This document shows, piece after piece, positions 3,018 to 64,000 of a stretch of DNA of 64,000 bases. The position numbers and the translations under genes were made by a program. Source of the DNA: a virus (lineage: Duplodnaviria > Caudoviricetes); IMG/VR virus record IMGVR_UViG_2859564202_000001. The stretch is one strand, 5' to 3'. Each line of letters begins with the position of its first letter. Within the stretch, counting starts at the first letter, position 1. The notes beneath the pieces were generated by a model. It was not told the origin of the DNA and did no database searches. It saw nothing but the letters and a program-made list of their open reading frames with translations.

Positions 3018-3421
3018 GAGTTACGTCCTTAATATATACAGCAGTCGTGGTGTGGACCATGACTGCTGTAGAAGTCTCCCCCTGCACCCATGGTTAGCGT
3101 ACTTTAATATTTATAACCCAAACCATATTATTTCGCAGAATTATGTGCAAAATGTAGCGACTGCGCTACTACCCCCGGTAGAACATGGGGGGATTTAAAG
3201 AGGAAATAGCGCCGAACATACGTGAAATAGAGACAAGCAAATAGTCTATCAGAGCACATAAAGGTGCCATACCCACTCTTTCAACTGATGACATAGGCAT
3301 TCCACCCGAATGAGTAGTCGCACAACCAAGACAAATCAACGCTGTGTTACCCAACCGGATGGTGTAAGAAGCACTGAAGACTTGATTTAAAGTCATCCCC
3401 CGCTGACGGCCTTGAATTTCT

Positions 3422-13031: not shown

Positions 13032-13380
13032 AACAACAGCGCATTACCACTAATGCCTCAACGCGAAAAGCTCCTTGATGTTTTGTGGGAGAGAATGCCT
13101 GGATGCCTAGAGAAAATCACTCAGCCTCACCTCTCCGGCATTCTTGTGGACAGCTAACCGGGTAGTCCCACATCATCTCTAGAAAAAGTCATCGAACTGC
13201 GTGATGTAGTACACTATCGCTCGTATACACCATTCACCATCACGTAACCAAATTCTTGCAGTACTAAGAAACCACTATTCTTGCTTCGCACTTGAAACAC
13301 GAAAGAATACGTAGTATTAATTAAGTTTTTCAAGAGCTGATAACACTAATCTTCAATGAAAGCACTTAAAGGGGAGAATC

Positions 13381-37842: not shown

Positions 37843-38589
37843 CTAATCAATTTTGAAAACGCGCACCATTAGGTAATCTCTCGATAAATAGTGTTTGGCC
37901 AGTAACAGACTCAAAAGCTTCTGCAAACTTGTTAAATCGTCAAAACAGCCGTTGACAAAGCTCTCCCACCACCGCAACTCTGCATCATGACTCCAATAAA
38001 ATTCCTCAACCGGCATTTGATAGGCATAACGTTCAGCTGTAGAAGGCCCCAGCATCATCCAACTCGTCGCTAATGCTGACTCCCACAATTCAAGATCTGT
38101 CTTTTCGAAAACCGAGCTAATAGGACTAGGCGAACCAGGACTCAGTGCACAATATCCCACAAGCTCACAACGTCCAGCCGACTGCGCCCACTCCTGATCA
38201 GGATCAACAATCAGCGCACGCCCAACCTTGACATCAATTCCGGTGTGCTGCACAAAGAACTCTAACCATTCCTGTAACTCAGATACAGTGAGCACATCCG
38301 GTAGATCAGCTACTAAGGATCTTATATTGGACGAGAAAAGTGACCACTTTTCAGCAACGATCGCTTGAAAAAGACACTGCCGAACAGCTCCGGCTATGCG
38401 CTGATTAGTAAATACATTACCTGGGAATGGTAGTGAACTACCGTCCCTTTTTGTCACTCTAGAAAATGCATTCCACTTTCCCATGATGTTGATGAGTAGA
38501 AAATCTAGACTTAGCGATGGCCCGATAAAGCGAAATCCGGAAGTTTTATAGCCTCTAGTGTAGATGCACAGTTGATGGGGTTCTGTCAT
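37843..38589 (-). CDS. Cytoplasmic protein coupled to the LGFP gene; candidate immunity protein
   Basis: ATGA overlap with the upstream stop; no signal peptide; the start could be further downstream. Confidence 0.6.
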   Translation of the reverse strand: MTEPHQLCIYTRGYKTSGFRFIGPSLSLDFLLINIMGKWNAFSRVTKRDGSSLPFPGNVFTNQRIAGAVRQCLFQAIVAEKWSLFSSNIRSLVADLPDVLTVSELQEWLEFFVQHTGIDVKVGRALIVDPDQEWAQSAGRCELVGYCALSPGSPSPISSVFEKTDLELWESALATSWMMLGPSTAERYAYQMPVEEFYWSHDAELRWWESFVNGCFDDLTSLQKLLSLLLAKHYLSRDYLMVRVFKID

Positions 38590-40475
38590 ATGCGAAGCTT
38601 ATTATAAAGATTCACATGATCAGGACATTGGGAAATTTCAGGCTCGTGTTCGATTCCACCAGGTGGGGTTGAATTACACCATGCTGAAATTACCCCCTTG
38701 GGTCTGTTCGAATTTGCTCCAGTGAAAGTATGAGGATTGTAAATAATAGTCACCCATTGCGGAGCGTGCATTTCTTTACATCCTGAGTTCTTATTGAATG
38801 TATAAGTTCTGCAATCTAGAAAGTACACCGTTTTCTCGAACTTGTAATAGCTGGTTCCTGGCGATGAGCCATAATCAATCACCGCTTTATCTACTACGGC
38901 CTCAGCCATAGCGTGGTTGGCGAAGTTGTGTTTGCAATAGTTTTTTAAATATCCCCAGCCTTCATTCCTGTAACGGTCATAATGCCCTTTTCTCACGACA
39001 AATCTGAACTCGGTGGGGAAACCTCGCGAACTATACTCTTTTTTGATCGGGCCACCATTCTTTTCAATGTTGTTTTCAGTTTTTCTCTGCTCATCTAAAT
39101 CGGGAAGATTCTTGCAATCCACGTATTGTGCACGCTGGGAAAACAGGGTCATCTCTTGGCTCGATGAGGATGAGCCGCTACTTCCAATTGGGAGGAAATC
39201 CTCCAAACTTCTTTCTTCATCGTCAGGAATCCATGTCAGTGCATCACCTGAGCCTAAAACAACACCTCTGGTGAATTCTTGTTCGAGTGACTCATTTAAT
39301 GATGTCAATGATGGTATCGGCCACCCTAAAGGAGTATCGGTATTTTGGTATTGCAGCCACAGGGAGTAAACATCACCATACAGCTCTCTGGCGCCTAGGA
39401 TTCCATTCCACGCAATCACCCCGCGCTCCGCAAAATTCACCACATGGAATAGACCAGAAACCTCAGGTGTTTCATCTGCTTCAGGAAAACCTAAACGACC
39501 CGTCTCCCGACCCAACGCATCCCACACCCGCTGCGTAGCCAAATACATAAACCGTGTCTGACGATCATTTCGCCACGAAATTGTTCCATTGGAGAAATTA
39601 TTGTAAAAATACTCAGTACCGCTAGGTAGCTCATTAGTGATCGGGATGCCAATGGCATGATTCGAGCCGCCAAGTTCTTCGTAGCGCTGTTTAATATCGC
39701 CCCACACAGCACCGCCAGTCAATGGGTTGTAATAGTTGTCACCACCTTGAAAAGTCTGTCGCTGAGTAAGGGGATAGTTTGTATCCATCGGACCAGAGGT
39801 TGGGTACCCCAATGGCCCTGATTCCCAGTTCAAGGTCCCCCACTGCCTCAAACCGTCCAGGGTCACTGCATAAGCGCCTGTGTCTGGATGCCAATAGATG
39901 GCACCCCCAACAAATTCACTTCTTTTGCCAACACCGTCGGGATTGGTCAACTCGTTTGACTTTGGTGGCCCAAGCCATGACAACTGACCTCCAACCTGCC
40001 GATAAGCGTCAAGAATCCGGCCACAAACTGAGAAACCTGTTGGCCACATAGCCTCACACCCAGTTGCAGCCATCAATCGTGCGCCCTCATTAAGTCGCGC
40101 TTCCGCAACCTCCACCTGATCAGCTTCGTCCTTGCTCACCCCCTCCGGTAACTCGATGACATCTGAGCGCATTTCCCCTGCAACGATGTCCCGCTTAGGT
40201 AGCGGAAGTTCCTCAACATTGTCTTTACTATCGTTGACGTGCTCGTGATACTCAATGACTACTTCTGGATGTGCTGATTCGAAATCCTCAAGTTGTTCCT
40301 TAACAGTCGGAGCATTCCTATTGGGAACATAGTCAACACCATCATCAGCAAACTGCTCATCACTGATTTCTTTTACAAGCTCAAATTGATCTTCCACTTG
40401 TGCTTGAGCTACCGGAGATGCAACCCCGATGGCCAGCAACATGACAGCAGAAACACCCACTAGTCTTCGTACCAA
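38586..40475 (-). CDS. psp1: Secreted LGFP-repeat protein with a distinct C-terminal domain
   Basis: Signal peptide AQA; LGPP/LGYP/IGIP/LGFP/LGWP repeats; Ser linker; Cys-containing C-domain; gene symbol from memory. Confidence 0.85.
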   Translation of the reverse strand: MVRRLVGVSAVMLLAIGVASPVAQAQVEDQFELVKEISDEQFADDGVDYVPNRNAPTVKEQLEDFESAHPEVVIEYHEHVNDSKDNVEELPLPKRDIVAGEMRSDVIELPEGVSKDEADQVEVAEARLNEGARLMAATGCEAMWPTGFSVCGRILDAYRQVGGQLSWLGPPKSNELTNPDGVGKRSEFVGGAIYWHPDTGAYAVTLDGLRQWGTLNWESGPLGYPTSGPMDTNYPLTQRQTFQGGDNYYNPLTGGAVWGDIKQRYEELGGSNHAIGIPITNELPSGTEYFYNNFSNGTISWRNDRQTRFMYLATQRVWDALGRETGRLGFPEADETPEVSGLFHVVNFAERGVIAWNGILGARELYGDVYSLWLQYQNTDTPLGWPIPSLTSLNESLEQEFTRGVVLGSGDALTWIPDDEERSLEDFLPIGSSGSSSSSQEMTLFSQRAQYVDCKNLPDLDEQRKTENNIEKNGGPIKKEYSSRGFPTEFRFVVRKGHYDRYRNEGWGYLKNYCKHNFANHAMAEAVVDKAVIDYGSSPGTSYYKFEKTVYFLDCRTYTFNKNSGCKEMHAPQWVTIIYNPHTFTGANSNRPKGVISAWCNSTPPGGIEHEPEISQCPDHVNLYNKLRI

Positions 40476-43775: not shown

Positions 43776-44462
43776 TTGATTAACTTATCCACTACCCAGA
43801 CCTCTACAAGAAAGTTCCCCAGAATGTCACTATCTATTAGTTTTCATAAAATTGCACTCTCTGCCACCACCTTGCTTGGCGCTGTCGCAATCTCTGCCTG
43901 TGCGCTAGTAACTCAAGCACCTCCTATTAACGCAGCCCCGGTTACTGGCAGCAGCTCATTAAGCTCCACCCTCGACCTGGGCACCACCACCCCTACCAGC
44001 ATCGACACAGTAAAACTCACTCAGCAAGCACAAAATCAAGCGGCACCACGCGTTGCAGCGAGCCTGGTGCGCGTGGTTGACGGCGACACCATTGTCGTGA
44101 ACTATCAGGGTGCTCAGAAAACTGTTCGTATGATCGGTATTGATTCCCCCGAAACCAAACACCCCACCAAGCCTGTGGGCTTCTACGGACCAGAATCTTC
44201 ACAGAATCTCACCACCATGCTGCGCGGTGCCACCATCACACTAGAATTTGATTCCACCCAAGCCCGCGAAGATCAATACGGACGCCTGCTTGCTTATGTC
44301 TGGTACACCAAGGGCGATAGCGGTCTTAAGCTTGCCAATTTGGAACAAATTGCCTCAGGCTCTGCTGCTGAATACAGCTTCGACACCCGCTACAACCACC
44401 GCAATATTTTCCTACGTGCACAAACCCTTGCCAAGGCAAGCAGTCTAGGTATGTGGGGTTAA
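43776..44462 (+). CDS. nuc: Secreted thermonuclease (SNase family)
   Basis: RVVDGDTI, VRMIGIDSPE, DQYGRLLAYV, A.....GMW. Confidence 0.92.
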   Translation: MINLSTTQTSTRKFPRMSLSISFHKIALSATTLLGAVAISACALVTQAPPINAAPVTGSSSLSSTLDLGTTTPTSIDTVKLTQQAQNQAAPRVAASLVRVVDGDTIVVNYQGAQKTVRMIGIDSPETKHPTKPVGFYGPESSQNLTTMLRGATITLEFDSTQAREDQYGRLLAYVWYTKGDSGLKLANLEQIASGSAAEYSFDTRYNHRNIFLRAQTLAKASSLGMWG

Positions 44463-44486: not shown

Positions 44487-44534
44487 AAACCCCCAGCAAC
44501 GTGCACCGAAGTCACGGTGGTTGCTGGGGGTTTT
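44487..44534. terminator. Bidirectional terminator between nuc and the peptide operon
   Basis: aaacccccagcaac...gttgctgggggtttt. Confidence 0.8.
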
Positions 44535-44588
44535 ACCCTGCCGGAGGCAGGGTCGGGTCAACATGCGCGAGAAGTTTAACAGCGCATG

Positions 44589-44708
44589 TTAGCCAATCGC
44601 GTTCATGAGCTTGACAAAAAAGTTGAGCAAGCCATTGGCGTTGTCCAAAAAGGTGCCGAGTCCATCGGAGCTAAGAACACCTTCGAGCTTTGAGCTGAGT
44701 CCATCCAT
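44589..44708 (-). CDS. 39-aa amphipathic peptide, PorA-like
   Basis: AGAAAGG RBS; MDGLSSKLEGVLSSDGLGTFLDNANGLLNFFVKLMNAIG*; below the ORF-track cutoff; no signal peptide. Confidence 0.65.
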   Translation of the reverse strand: MDGLSSKLEGVLSSDGLGTFLDNANGLLNFFVKLMNAIG

Positions 44709-44760
44709 TGTGTAACAACCTTTCTTGAGAATTTTTTAAGAGAGAAAAAGCAACGCCTGA

Positions 44761-44904
44761 CTAGGCGCTAAATGCCTCGCCGTAGCCTTCGACACCAAGT
44801 TCAGTAGAGATCAAACCACCAAGGTCAAGCAGATCCCCAAAACCAAGCACCTGCGAGATCGCACTGGCGCTGAGCAGACCTTCCAGCACTGCACTAAGCA
44901 TCAT
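44761..44904 (-). CDS. 47-aa acidic/hydrophobic peptide, PorH-like
   Basis: MMLSAVLEGLLSASAISQVLGFGDLLDLGGLISTELGVEGYGEAFSA*; GAAAG upstream; AT-rich promoter region at 44930-44990. Confidence 0.55.
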   Translation of the reverse strand: MMLSAVLEGLLSASAISQVLGFGDLLDLGGLISTELGVEGYGEAFSA

Positions 44905-45078
44905 CACCACAAACTTTCACAGTAGTTTTTTCATTAACTTTGTTGATTAAGTTTCAATAAAGTTTACTATATACTAAAGTGGAAACCAAAGACGAGGAAA
45001 GTATGTCTATTTGTTTGTCCCCAGGTTGTCCACATTTGTTTTATTCCCCGAGAATGTCCTAGAAAGGAACTCGACCCC

Positions 45079-52646: not shown

Positions 52647-53273
52647 ATGTCTGCTAATCCTTCCAATAACTTCAACGTCATCGGCCGTCTTGCTGCTGAT
52701 CCAAAGATCTTCACCAACCCAGATGGCTCCCGCAACATCCAGATCGCCGTATACTCCACCAACAACTTTGCTAACCGCAATGGTGTCTATGAGGACTCCA
52801 TCGTTCCGCTCACCCAGTTCTACTCCGCATCCAAGGAAGGTAACGGAATCTACTCCTACCTCAAGGAAGGTGACCAGGTTGCGGTCAACGGCTACATCCA
52901 CCAGGATCAGTTCACTGACAAGTCCACTGGCGCTAAACGCTACGAGTTGAACCTATCTATCGACTCCATCCAGCCGCTTGAAACCAAGTCTGCTGCTGAC
53001 GCTCGCCGTGCTCGCAAGCAGGTCGTTGAGGCAAACAAGGCGCAGGCTGCTGCACAGCAGGCACCTGCACCAGTTCAGCAGTTCGCTGCTCAGGACGCAC
53101 CTCAGTACGCAGGTAACCCTTTCGCTGGTCTCTCTCAGACCCAGGCACCAGTTGCAGCCCAGGTTGCACCACAGCCACAGTACGTAAACGATCCTTACGC
53201 ACAGCCACAGGCAGGTTTTGTTCCACCTGCACCAGTTGCTCCACAGGTTGATATTGACCCACGCTTCATCTAA
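52647..53273 (+). CDS. ssb: Single-stranded DNA-binding protein
   Basis: N...VIGRLAADP, YLKEGDQVAVNG.I....FTDK.TG.KRY OB-fold; Gln/Pro/Ala linker. Confidence 0.9.
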   Translation: MSANPSNNFNVIGRLAADPKIFTNPDGSRNIQIAVYSTNNFANRNGVYEDSIVPLTQFYSASKEGNGIYSYLKEGDQVAVNGYIHQDQFTDKSTGAKRYELNLSIDSIQPLETKSAADARRARKQVVEANKAQAAAQQAPAPVQQFAAQDAPQYAGNPFAGLSQTQAPVAAQVAPQPQYVNDPYAQPQAGFVPPAPVAPQVDIDPRFI

Positions 53274-57449: not shown

Positions 57450-58364
57450 ATGAAAAACCGTAAAAAAATCATGTCTACCCTCACCACTGTCTGCGCCGTA
57501 CTGGGTATAGTTGCAGCTCATCCATTCCACGCCTCTGCTGTCATCGGCGGCTCTGTCCCATCAACTGATTCCGTTGCCAACGCTGTCGCAAAAATCGGAC
57601 CAGGCGCATTGAACTGCAGCGGTGTCATGATCTCACCATCGTGGGCACTCACCGCACGCCACTGTGTCGATGACATCAACATACTCGGCGACATCGACAC
57701 CATCACGCCTATTACTCCAGGTATTCATCGCAATGAAGGTAACTATATGGGTGAGGTTTACCGCGCACCGTCCGGTGATCTAGCGCTCATTAATATCAAC
57801 GGCGTGCACAAGGGCACCATTGCGCAGCTCCCCACACAAGAATATCCACTGGGAACCGCTGCACAGTCAGTCGGTTTTGGTGGCGGTGGTGTCAATATCC
57901 GCACCGCTGAATCGGTCAACATGATTCTCACCGACATATATAGCGTGAGGTCAGGGAAATTCCATCACGGTGTCGGTCGATCACACTATCTCCTCTTTGA
58001 TTATGACAGTGCTGAAACTGGTCGAATCCACAAAGGTGATTCTGGGGGCCCCATCTTCATTGGTGACGAGGTTGTGGGCATTATGTCTCACGGCACAATA
58101 AATAAGAACGACGGGTCTTTTGATGACGAATCCGGCGCTGATGTATTTGCCTCTCTTGAGTGGATTCTCGACACCACCGGCATCACAGTGACAGACACTG
58201 CCGAGGACAACAACGATAACTCTGACAACGACGATGTTGACTCAAAAGAAGGTCCTGCATCAAATACATCACTTGTACTCACTGATAACGGACCGTCACG
58301 CATTGGTAGCAACACTTCTTCAGCACTCATCGGATTATCCTCAGAAGCACTATTTTCTTCTTAA
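57450..58364 (+). CDS. Secreted trypsin-like (S1) serine protease
   Basis: Signal peptide, VIGG, CSG..I...W.LTARHC, DLAL, GDSGGP; ends ALFSS. Confidence 0.92.
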   Translation: MKNRKKIMSTLTTVCAVLGIVAAHPFHASAVIGGSVPSTDSVANAVAKIGPGALNCSGVMISPSWALTARHCVDDINILGDIDTITPITPGIHRNEGNYMGEVYRAPSGDLALININGVHKGTIAQLPTQEYPLGTAAQSVGFGGGGVNIRTAESVNMILTDIYSVRSGKFHHGVGRSHYLLFDYDSAETGRIHKGDSGGPIFIGDEVVGIMSHGTINKNDGSFDDESGADVFASLEWILDTTGITVTDTAEDNNDNSDNDDVDSKEGPASNTSLVLTDNGPSRIGSNTSSALIGLSSEALFSS

Positions 58365-62914: not shown

Positions 62915-64000
62915 TTAGCGCGCCATGCGCTTTGCTAGCTCTTCATCACGCTCGCCTGAGTGCTGATAACGCAGTGCTGCACTAGGTGTTGAGTGCCCCA
63001 GCCGCGCCATCACCTCCTTGAGTGTCGCCCCAACCTGTGCATACTTCGTACCCGAATAATGCCTCATCGAGTGAACGGTCGCTTTACTGTGGACACTTTC
63101 CCGCGCCCTATCCCAGTTGTGCTTAAAGGTGTGATACGGCATGGGTTCATCAGGATCTCTCATCGAGCTCCATAGTCGCAAACCCACATCAATCGTGTCC
63201 ACATGCTTGGCAATTTCTGCTGCATCTTTGCCATAGATATAGAGGCTACGAACACCAGCTTCAGTTTTAGGCGGACCTTCAACTCGGCCATGGTATCTCG
63301 TGTGCCTAATGCTCCGAGAAATCCTTATTCGAACACAATCTACAAATCCGCTGCGATCAAAATAAACATCCACATCAGTGGTACGCAGCGCAACGATTTC
63401 ACCGAATCGAAGTGCACCAGCGGCAGCAACAATAGCCAAACAAAAGTACTTACTCGGCAGTGCACCAATGATCGCCTCAAGCTCGGCATCGGTTGGGACA
63501 TCAACCTTTTTGCCTGTTTTCGTATTACCCCCGCCACGGACTTTGCACGGATTCATCGGGATAATGCCATCCTCCACTGCAGTCTCCATGACAGACTTCA
63601 TCATGCTGTAACTCCGCGCCATTGAGGTCAATTTACCGTCCTGAATAGTATCGCTATACCACTCACGGACATCAGCGACAGTGATTTCACAGAGCGCATA
63701 ATCAGCCCAATAACTTAGTCGATCTGATTTTATATAACGAAAGTAATCATCTTTCACCCCTTGGCTGAGTTTCTTTCCTTGGGCATTTGTCCGGGTTTCT
63801 ATCCACCTCGATGCATAACTGAAGAAGGTCTCCATCATGCGTTCTTCGGCTTCGCGCTGTGCCTGCTCGAACCTCTCCCGCATCTCAAAATCCATCCATG
63901 TGCCATTGATGATGGCCGTGCGTTCAGAGGCCAAGAACTCCTGCGCCTCACCCTTGGTACCGAAGGTATACGGGGCAGAGTATCGCCTACCCTCGTGCAT
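62915..64000 (-). CDS. int: Tyrosine recombinase/integrase (5' end probably outside the window)
   Basis: ALRFGEIVALR, PKT.AG.R, HSMRH, RLGH, RYQH catalytic residues. Confidence 0.95.
   Translation of the reverse strand: MHEGRRYSAPYTFGTKGEAQEFLASERTAIINGTWMDFEMRERFEQAQREAEERMMETFFSYASRWIETRTNAQGKKLSQGVKDDYFRYIKSDRLSYWADYALCEITVADVREWYSDTIQDGKLTSMARSYSMMKSVMETAVEDGIIPMNPCKVRGGGNTKTGKKVDVPTDAELEAIIGALPSKYFCLAIVAAAGALRFGEIVALRTTDVDVYFDRSGFVDCVRIRISRSIRHTRYHGRVEGPPKTEAGVRSLYIYGKDAAEIAKHVDTIDVGLRLWSSMRDPDEPMPYHTFKHNWDRARESVHSKATVHSMRHYSGTKYAQVGATLKEVMARLGHSTPSAALRYQHSGERDEELAKRMAR

Follow-up and report, generated by a model that had tools for sequence, protein, structure and literature searches.

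Two adjacent small genes, pep1 and pep2, lie in the right part of CGP3, an element of Corynebacterium glutamicum ATCC 13032, and the pattern of substitutions among sibling elements indicates that both are real protein genes under purifying selection. Their products look like members of the PorH/PorA/ProtX class in physical terms, with a PorA-type acceptor loop in pep2, and we tentatively propose, at somewhat short of an even chance, that the two are an element-encoded PorH/PorA-like pair of mycomembrane peptides. As far as sequence can tell, membership of either peptide in the PorA or PorH families is not demonstrable, and the porH-porA-like interpretation from which this analysis started, a sequence-only reading of the DNA, is partly supported overall.

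Two small genes, their signals, and their conservation

Throughout, the window is the whole stretch of DNA that was analyzed, 64,000 nucleotides of the viral record IMGVR_UViG_2859564202_000001, and the features discussed here are collected in Table 1. Two consecutive minus-strand ORFs, preceded by sequences resembling ribosome-binding sites and by an AT-rich region and followed by hairpins, had been described at this locus, and each of these elements is present.

Table 1. Positions of the features of the pep1-pep2 locus and its surroundings in the window
Feature	Position	Strand	Basis and remarks
pep1, gene for a 47-aa acidic micro-protein (P0001)	44761..44904	-	ORF; ATG at 44904, stop TAG at 44763-44761
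pep1, alternative starts	ATG 44901, GTG 44910	-	
pep2, gene for a 39-aa acidic amphipathic micro-protein (P0008)	44589..44708	-	ORF; ATG at 44708, stop TAA
Shine-Dalgarno-like GAAAG, 9 nt 5' of the pep1 ATG	44914..44918	-	Sequence; invariant in sibling alignment
Shine-Dalgarno AGAAAGG, 10 nt 5' of the pep2 ATG	44719..44725	-	Sequence; fully conserved
Hairpin over the pep1 stop codon, then T/C-rich run	44741..44770	-	Terminator-like site; -14.3 kcal/mol, z = -1.4
Three-hairpin cluster closing the pep1-pep2 unit	44487..44591	-	-65.2 kcal/mol, z = -6.7
AT-rich divergent promoter/operator region, common to pep1 and the plus-strand 188-aa gene	44905..45078	.	GC 29-35%
11-nt inverted repeat in the upstream region	44936-44946 / 44954-44964		
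Palindrome in the upstream region	44963-44978		
SNase-type nuclease gene, convergent	43776-44462		Neighbor on the pep2 side
LGFP protein gene	38586-40475		Boundary of the ~22-kb stretch
Tyrosine integrase gene	62915-64000		Boundary of the ~22-kb stretch

Among the possible starts of pep1, the GTG codon that serves as the start in one public annotation is unlikely to be the right one since it lies too near the GAAAG. The Shine-Dalgarno consensus of C. glutamicum is AGAAAGGAGG, and the AGAAAGG in front of pep2 matches its first 7 nt. This site is the one conserved part of the spacer between the two genes, which measures 52 nt in the window and 52-61 nt among the siblings and is otherwise variable in sequence. 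The hairpin over the pep1 stop codon, the stem of which is kept in a sibling, is possibly a partial terminator or attenuator between pep1 and pep2. As for the three-hairpin cluster that closes the unit, none of 200 shuffles folds equally well (0/200), its last hairpin doubles as a terminator for the convergent nuclease gene, and in a sibling that is 87% identical this third hairpin has retained its 14-bp stem around a wholly different loop.

On the other side of the pair, the GC content of the 100 nt 5' of pep1 falls to 29%, and the region contains, in addition to the repeats listed in Table 1, the arrangement TTGGTT-17 nt-TAAACT, a possible promoter that was read by eye. The whole upstream region is unusually conserved, with 11% of its columns variable among the siblings as compared with 23-25% in other non-coding stretches. 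CgpS acts as a silencer of CGP3 genes (Kever et al., bioRxiv 10.1101/2021.01.28.428610), and an AT-rich, unusually conserved region of this kind would suit CgpS-type control.

Are ORFs this short genuine genes? We assembled a sibling set of 13 loci with 8 haplotypes, comprising the window, the genome AP017369 (G287), and eleven contigs from public assemblies, the flanks of which are 87-93% identical. Conservation in sibling elements had been put forward as a check, and the two ORFs are kept in the 13 loci with mostly synonymous substitutions: for pep1 and pep2 combined, 17 variable codons are synonymous and 5 are residue-changing (9 synonymous-only and 3 residue-changing in pep1; 8 and 2 in pep2), and codon position 3 accounts for 15 of the 22 variable sites (binomial P = 9e-4), the counts at positions 1/2/3 being 2/3/7 in pep1 and 1/1/8 in pep2. 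Read in the other two frames, the same substitutions yield mostly residue changes and stop codons. We consider pep1 and pep2 to be real coding genes because their own frames are the ones in which the substitutions are mostly silent, and the others gain stops. The share of synonymous relative to changing codons, 17:5, is no lower than in the neighboring genes, 127:65, and the difference is not significant. Between the window and AP017369, which are 87% identical over 12 kb in this region, the two genes show 10 synonymous substitutions and a single replacement (Val to Ala), such that the pep2 proteins are 100% and the pep1 proteins 98% identical, with 89% identity for the 188-aa protein encoded divergently next to them.

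These codon-level data bear directly on the reading that the ORFs are conserved with no peptide function of their own, either because they are translated solely for the regulation of a neighbor or because an RNA or DNA element is what is being conserved. The unusually conserved upstream region could itself be the true functional element, which speaks for this idea; however, the skew among codon positions and the surplus of synonymous changes belong specifically to the frames of pep1 and pep2, both genes have good ribosome-binding sites that are conserved within an otherwise variable spacer, an Rfam search of the locus returned nothing relevant, and all serines of the two peptides, including the candidate acceptors of acylation considered below, are invariant among the siblings. 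We therefore regard an explanation of this type as highly improbable.

The genes had also been called hidden and unannotated. That description applies at best to some records; NCBI nr already contains the exact sequences of pep1 (122 contigs) and pep2 (147 contigs), and gene callers predict both genes in most sibling contigs. In the AP017369 annotation, a 35-aa ORF on the opposite strand occupies the place of pep2.

The element and the distribution of the pair

The assignment of the window to CGP3 follows from the primers used for two genes of CGP3, cg2045 and cg2046 (supplement of Kever et al.); these primers map inside it at positions 13053 and 13381. Given these positions, the possibility that pep1 and pep2 are themselves Cg2045 and Cg2046, an adjacent pair of small proteins from CGP3 that Kever et al. 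screened, was rejected. All sampled 31-mers of the window are present in a near-identical genome (G001), from which the reference porH-porA operon was read; the PorH and PorA sequences and the porH-porA gene order that had been cited earlier agree with these chromosomal genes, and the known PorA sequence matches G001 with 100% identity. In this genome, the pep1-pep2 locus lies at 1,967,085-1,967,485 and PorA is encoded at 2,887,945-2,888,079, such that pep1-pep2 is not at the conserved chromosomal porH-porA locus but in a CGP3-type element (1.967 Mb vs 2.888 Mb).

The pair is located in a ~22-kb stretch bounded by the LGFP protein gene, which is probably psp1 (cg2069), and by the tyrosine integrase gene. 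In the cg numbering, the integrase fragments cg2070/cg2071 follow directly on cg2069, with no gene in between, and NCgl1781 has been assigned to 'prophage region CGP4' in a Jülich paper. From the gene numbering we tentatively infer that the ~22-kb stretch is CGP4 and that it is absent from the BX927147 reference. A search of the stretch for a DtxR box, as a link to CGP4, gave no match with up to 3 mismatches.

At closer range, an 18-kb array of genes that are small and often acidic, with ssb among them, has pep1 and pep2 at its edge, and the two are transcribed opposite to this array as a two-gene unit with terminators of its own. Could they be cytoplasmic micro-effectors, i.e. proteins that bind a host or rival-element protein for takeover or anti-defense in the manner of the gyrase inhibitor Gip? 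Three points would fit: an array of small genes with ssb looks like a leading or early region, small effectors that work in the cytoplasm are already known from CGP3 (Kever et al., bioRxiv 10.1101/2021.01.28.428610), and neither pep1 nor pep2 has an export signal. On the other hand, the hydrophobicity of both peptides is very high for soluble proteins (GRAVY 0.93 and 0.44), the unit runs in the direction opposite to the array and is separately terminated, and the PorA loop motif in pep2, described below, would have to be a coincidence. On balance, we find the idea of micro-effectors rather unlikely, although it deserves to be kept in mind.

The pair is narrowly distributed. In a genus-wide tblastn search of 321 Corynebacterium species genomes, pep1 and pep2 were found in G001 and AP017369 only (2/321), which restricts the pair to C. 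glutamicum-type elements among these genomes, and the 188-aa neighbor was found only in the same two species. A weak tblastn match in a third genome (G058), to an ORF that contains FGDL, was rejected as noise in a high-GC frame. When distant pairs were sought via relatives of the nuclease in GTDB genomes and IMG/VR, the loci were unrelated or absent. Against a set of 5.8 billion protein clusters, pep1 matched only itself, and against 1.84 billion cluster representatives, pep2 matched only its own cluster and three long repeat proteins (cadherin-like, tape-measure-like, and with HhH repeats), which were discarded as homologues since their scores were spurious sums of short matches. No match was obtained by tblastn of pep1, pep2, and PorA against a phage collection, by tblastn of PorA against a plasmid collection, or by blastn of the locus against that plasmid collection, and searches of PHROGs, Pfam, and NCBIfam with pep1 and pep2 gave nothing (E ≤ 10 for Pfam and NCBIfam). 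By these sequence searches, pep1 and pep2 have no homologue outside the sibling elements in the sets covered.

The question of kinship with PorA and PorH

Are pep1 and pep2 relatives of PorH and PorA, or are they look-alikes? The sequence-only reading had called for a profile search against the two families, and neither peptide is recognized significantly, be it by the NCBIfam models or by profiles of our own. The NCBIfam models score the true chromosomal proteins at 83.5 bits (PorA) and 39.5 bits (PorH), and hmmscan of pep1 and pep2 against the PorA and PorH models gave no match at E ≤ 10 (the curated cut-off of NF033925 is 50 bits). Six-frame searches of G001 and AP017369 returned only chromosomal porA or unrelated long ORFs with the PorA model (E ≤ 0.01), and only chromosomal porH or unrelated long ORFs with the PorH model (PorH_2, NF033938; E ≤ 10).

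For a more sensitive comparison, 31 PorA and 29 PorH sequences from 30 species were gathered via the NCBIfam PorA model, HMMs were built from them, and 3000 composition-matched shuffles of each peptide served as controls. Against the PorA HMM, pep2 scores 3.8 bits, which 156 of 3000 shuffles equal, and hhalign aligns it over nearly its full length with P = 0.003 and a probability of 10%; against the PorH HMM, it scores 4.7 bits (33/3000 shuffles; hhalign P = 0.009). The corresponding values for pep1 are 0.2 bits against PorA (1280/3000; P = 0.09) and -0.5 bits against PorH (652/3000; P = 0.19). To put these values on a scale, PorA and PorH themselves give P = 0.014 when aligned with each other, and the hhalign probabilities of the peptides do not exceed 10%. 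Ranked among the 664 ORFs of the window, pep2 comes 1st with the PorH HMM and 3rd with the PorA HMM, which is within the noise range, and pep1 comes 80th and 40th. The C-terminal block of PorA (around WAGAV...LIGLV) is absent from pep2, the second helix of which has no Trp and only loose similarity, and the N-terminal signature of PorH (MDLS..., F.TFG.NIG) is absent from pep1. In terms of sequence profiles, then, the signals are weak, with P = 0.003-0.05 for pep2 and PorA and no significance for pep1; pep2 may conceivably have arisen from a PorA gene, and pep1 would be at most an analogue of PorH.

The loop motif of PorA provides a second line of comparison. From residue 12, pep2 carries LSSDGL, which matches the PorA loop motif LSS[DE]G[LIV], the site of the mycoloylated Ser15 in C. 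glutamicum PorA (PMC13643282). This strict form occurs in 10 of the 31 collected PorA sequences, and a relaxed form, LS[SGN].G[LIV] at ~10-15 residues from the N-terminus, in 21 of the 31; of the 26 PorA sequences with LS[SGN], 19 have the motif Leu at residue 10-14, and pep2 has it at residue 12. Among the 664 ORFs of the window (49,683 aa), pep2 contains the sole occurrence, and a six-frame translation of the fetched loci, 838,000 residues in all, contains the motif in PorA and in copies of pep2 only. In shuffles of pep2, it arises with a frequency of 3.7e-4, a number to be read with the understanding that the argument from the motif is post hoc. By these counts, the resemblance of pep2 to PorA appears specific and to exceed composition. 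Echoes of PorA and PorH motifs had been pointed out in both peptides: LSSDGL in pep2 stands as the PorA-family loop motif at the PorA distance, whereas FGDL in pep1 is an isolated 4-mer.

Structure predictions are in keeping with this placement. AlphaFold2, run on the single pep2 sequence (pLDDT 86), predicts a helix at residues 2-12, a loop at S13-D15, and a second helix at residues 16-38, such that the motif sits in the inter-helix loop. By eye, the long helix bears a narrow polar stripe (D22, N25, N29, K33, N36), and its hydrophobic moment is 0.48. For pep1 (pLDDT 82), helices at residues 2-20 and 22-35 are predicted, followed by an acidic low-confidence tail with a mean pLDDT of 57. The C-terminus of pep1 reads ...AFSA, and its penultimate Ser46 is inside the floppy tail. 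An ending of the form [FL]S. arises in 3.4% of pep1 shuffles, and only 12 of the 29 PorH sequences have Ser among their last two residues, which makes a penultimate Ser weakly defining for PorH. Mycoloylation falls on flexible Ser/Gly-rich stretches (PMC11066868), and the penultimate Ser is mycoloylated in both PorH (S56) and ProtX (S37) (PMC5310785); the predicted placement of the pep2 loop motif and of pep1 Ser46 in its tail would fit both of these patterns.

A possible place in the mycomembrane and likeness to known systems

In what sense do pep1 and pep2 belong with PorA, PorH, and ProtX? Only a handful of mycomembrane proteins are known from Corynebacterium. The traits of leaderless mycomembrane peptides, namely the 40-60 aa size class, an acidic and hydrophobic character, a predicted alpha-helical fold, and the absence of a signal peptide, are all seen in pep1 and pep2, in line with the earlier description of the two as leaderless, acidic, and amphipathic. 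The lengths are 47 aa (pep1) and 39 aa (pep2), with 57 aa for PorH, 45 aa for PorA, and 38 aa for ProtX; the net charges are -6 (pep1) and -2 (pep2), with -8 for PorH and -4 for PorA; and the GRAVY values given above stand beside 0.79 for PorA, 0.97 for ProtX, and -0.04 for PorH. Both peptides are without a basic N-terminus and contain no W, C, H, P, or R, and 79% of their residues are drawn from L/G/S/F/D/E/N/A. PorA, PorH, and ProtX have no mutual sequence similarity (PMC5310785), and ProtX gave no alignment in our comparison either. For this reason, the class is a physical and not a genealogical one, and a missing profile match does not exclude a shared function.

The same physical traits invite another reading, in which pep1 and pep2 are membrane-active, with the cytoplasmic membrane or other cells as their target, and would be a leaderless two-peptide bacteriocin, a surfactant or cytolysin of the PSM-beta type, or a pair of toxins for lysis or abortive infection. 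With two leaderless helical peptides of 39-47 aa encoded side by side, pep1-pep2 has the layout known from leaderless two-peptide bacteriocins and from PSM-beta pairs, and in a language-model search, the PSMbeta (PF05480) cluster came second for pep2 with a score of 0.86, below the 0.9 threshold for a lead. A Pfam search with PF05480, however, gave no match at E ≤ 10, and a six-frame search of G001 gave unrelated long ORFs only. Bacteriocins and type I toxins are typically cationic, unlike pep1 and pep2 with their net negative charges; no immunity, ABC-exporter, or antitoxin gene adjoins the pair; and the LGFP/endolysin-like gene is 4 kb off, beyond the convergent gene and the terminators. With these points weighed, we judge a membrane-active role of this kind to be improbable.

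The reading that we prefer remains that of a PorH/PorA-like pair. By analogy with the known peptides, pep1 and pep2, as signal-less acidic helical micro-proteins, would probably be exported to the mycomembrane and probably anchored there by Cmt1/MytC-dependent serine O-mycoloylation, for which the candidate acceptors are Ser46 of pep1, in its flexible tail, and either Ser13 or Ser14 of pep2, in the loop between its helices, and the two peptides may assemble together, or with host PorA/PorH, as a helical oligomer. In C. glutamicum, surface assembly of PorH requires PorA and the mycoloylation of at least one partner, and an AlphaFold2 model of PorAH is a 5+5 pore (ipTM 0.88) with the acylated serines as a belt (PMC13643282). 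Export, mycoloylation, pairing, channel or decoy activity, and an effect on phage or conjugative entry are all properties that we infer for pep1 and pep2.

Mass spectrometry has something to say about such peptides. In MALDI of solvent extracts from a porHporA deletion strain, ProtX peaks alone were seen in the relevant mass range (PMC5310785), which argues against high amounts of pep1 in uninduced cells, provided that the strain carries the ~22-kb stretch. The masses of pep1 and pep2 are 4703.3 Da and 4059.6 Da, and their predicted M+Na values are 4725.3 and 4081.6, each with +478/504/530 if mycoloylated. With its mass of 4703.3 Da, pep1 is within ~1 Da of the sodium adduct of PorA and could thus be mistaken for PorA in linear MALDI.

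What might an element gain from such a pair? Phage Cog needs PorA (with ProtX), and phage CyranoPS needs PorAH and MytC (PMC9671496; bioRxiv 10.64898/2026.10.29.762952), which bears out the earlier statement that PorA and PorH are implicated in corynephage infection. Both studies were carried out in MB001, a strain without CGP3 (PMC9671496; bioRxiv 10.64898/2026.10.29.762952), and because an element-free strain was used, an element-encoded look-alike could have been missed as a modulator of phage or conjugative entry. A more specific proposal would be that pep1-pep2, when expressed, mixes with or replaces the host PorAH pore, and thereby brings about surface or entry exclusion of phages and rival elements, or altered permeability; we consider this quite improbable as it stands. 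If it were true, pep1-pep2 would have no precedent either as a mobile, accessory mycomembrane protein or as a mycoloylated exclusion factor. More generally, the pair bears on how signal-less peptides reach the mycomembrane and on what Cmt1/MytC recognizes. A second, non-orthologous pair would serve as a naturally occurring test of the acceptor motif and of pore assembly, in which the acceptor loop of PorA has been kept and the rest has diverged.

How, finally, do pep1 and pep2 compare with individual known systems? The PSM-beta peptides of staphylococci are leaderless amphipathic helical peptides of ~44 aa that are near-neutral to acidic and encoded as adjacent pairs, and their cluster was the top one with a Pfam family for pep2 in the language-model search, but they belong to another phylum and another envelope, and pep1 and pep2 have no profile match to them. 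ProtX (cg2875), which was read from G001 and the mass of which matches the published 3874 Da (PMC5310785), is likewise leaderless, acidic, Gly/Ser-rich, and helical, is mycoloylated at its penultimate Ser37, and is homologous to neither PorA nor PorH (PMC5310785). It differs in being the product of a single chromosomal gene, as opposed to a pair on a mobile element, and it gave no alignment with pep1 or pep2 even at E ≤ 1000.

The likeness of pep1 to PorH (NF033938/NF033937; cg3009, 57 aa) lies in its being the first, longer, and most acidic member of its pair, in its predicted helices and flexible acidic C-terminal tail, and in its Phe-Ser-x ending, in which the penultimate Ser is placed like S56 of PorH in ...NFSS; the differences are that pep1 is without the N-terminal signature, that neither the HMM nor the hhalign comparison is significant, and that pep1 is more hydrophobic (GRAVY 0.93 vs -0.04). 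For pep2 and PorA (NF033925; cg3008, 45 aa), the differences are the missing profile match of significance, the missing C-terminal W-A-G-A-V...L-I-G-L-V block, and the location on a mobile element instead of the chromosomal porH-porA locus. As for what pep2 and PorA share, both are signal-less, acidic, ~40 aa in length, and encoded by the second gene of a two-peptide unit; both are predicted to consist of a short N-terminal helix, a Ser-rich loop, and a long C-terminal helix; the loop motif of pep2 is at the position of the loop with the mycoloylated Ser15; and both end in a hydrophobic C-terminus with Gly last. At the level of the operon, the claim of a two-peptide pair on a mobile element has held up, in that pep1 and pep2 are real, co-oriented micro-protein genes with an order, size, charge, and helicity that parallel porH-porA. 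The spacer is 83 nt in porH-porA and 52 nt in pep1-pep2, but in both units, the gene for the longer, more acidic peptide comes first, that for the shorter peptide comes second, and a terminator follows the second gene.

Non-coding sequences flanking pep1 and pep2

At the locus of pep1 and pep2 (minus-strand genes of 47 and 39 aa), non-coding conservation is highest in the intergenic promoter region that separates pep1 from the divergently transcribed 188-aa gene; in the sibling alignment, 11% of its columns are variable vs 23-25% in the remaining non-coding stretches. This region, which holds an inverted repeat and a palindrome, is a candidate operator or nucleation site for CgpS, the silencer of CGP3 genes.

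At the other end of the pair, what has been conserved in the bidirectional terminator shared with the nuclease gene? The G+C-rich, 14-bp stem is identical in the window and in the 87%-identical sibling locus of AP017369, and the loop of ~19 nt has been wholly replaced in the sibling. The terminator is a clear case of divergence with the structure preserved. The nuclease itself has a hydrophobic, signal-like N-terminal region, and gene callers set its start 16 codons downstream in sibling contigs, yielding a protein of 212 aa.

Features in and around the pep1-pep2 locus
Feature	Window position	Orientation	Remarks
LGFP protein	38586-40475		629 aa; four LGFP repeats
SNase-type nuclease	43776-44462	convergent with pep1-pep2	
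Bidirectional terminator, pep2/nuclease gene	44487-44533		counterpart in L066, a locus fetched from AP017369 (G287)
Intergenic promoter region, pep1/188-aa gene	44905-45078	divergent	29-35% GC
Inverted repeat	44936-44946 / 44954-44964		11-nt; inside the promoter region
Palindrome	44963-44978		inside the promoter region
SSB	52647-53273	plus	array right of pep1-pep2
Trypsin-like serine protease	57450-58364	plus	array right of pep1-pep2
Tyrosine integrase	62915-64000	plus	array right of pep1-pep2

Gene numbering and annotation of the surrounding stretch

The ~22 kb that run from the LGFP protein gene to the integrase (window 40500-62900) are without equivalent in the cg gene numbering, in which the int2 fragments cg2070/71 come directly after cg2069. 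The genes of this stretch are thus invisible to any microarray data set that relies on cg numbers. It is probably the 'CGP4' stretch, found in the NCgl-numbered genome only, and the LGFP protein gene is probably psp1 (cg2069). The match of the LGFP protein to an endolysin PHROG is limited to the repeat region (residues 166-310); the protein is likely secreted and anchored to the cell wall, rather than a proven lysin. In the plus-strand array, most of the remaining genes are without a Pfam family. As for the pair itself, pep2 is intact and 100% identical in AP017369, and the gene list of that record, which probably mis-annotates it, places a 35-aa opposite-strand ORF at the site (L105, a fetched locus, 3217-3324).

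Comparison with PorA

How widespread is PorA, the host mycomembrane peptide, in the genus? Of 321 Corynebacterium species genomes searched with the curated PorA model, no more than 78 yield a match at E<=0.01, and 19 have one that exceeds the model's cut-off. In several genomes (G135, G012, G222), two PorA-like ORFs stand in tandem. Most species thus lack the family, or its members diverge much more widely than the profile can capture. With an average mass of 4703.3 Da, pep1 lies within ~1 Da of the sodium adduct of PorA (4680.3+22; encoded at 1498-1635 of the chromosomal locus L004), and its predicted mycoloylated forms would lie within ~4 to 26 Da of the PorA triplet. Because these masses nearly coincide, pep1 and PorA could possibly be mistaken for one another when wild-type extracts are analysed by MALDI in linear mode.
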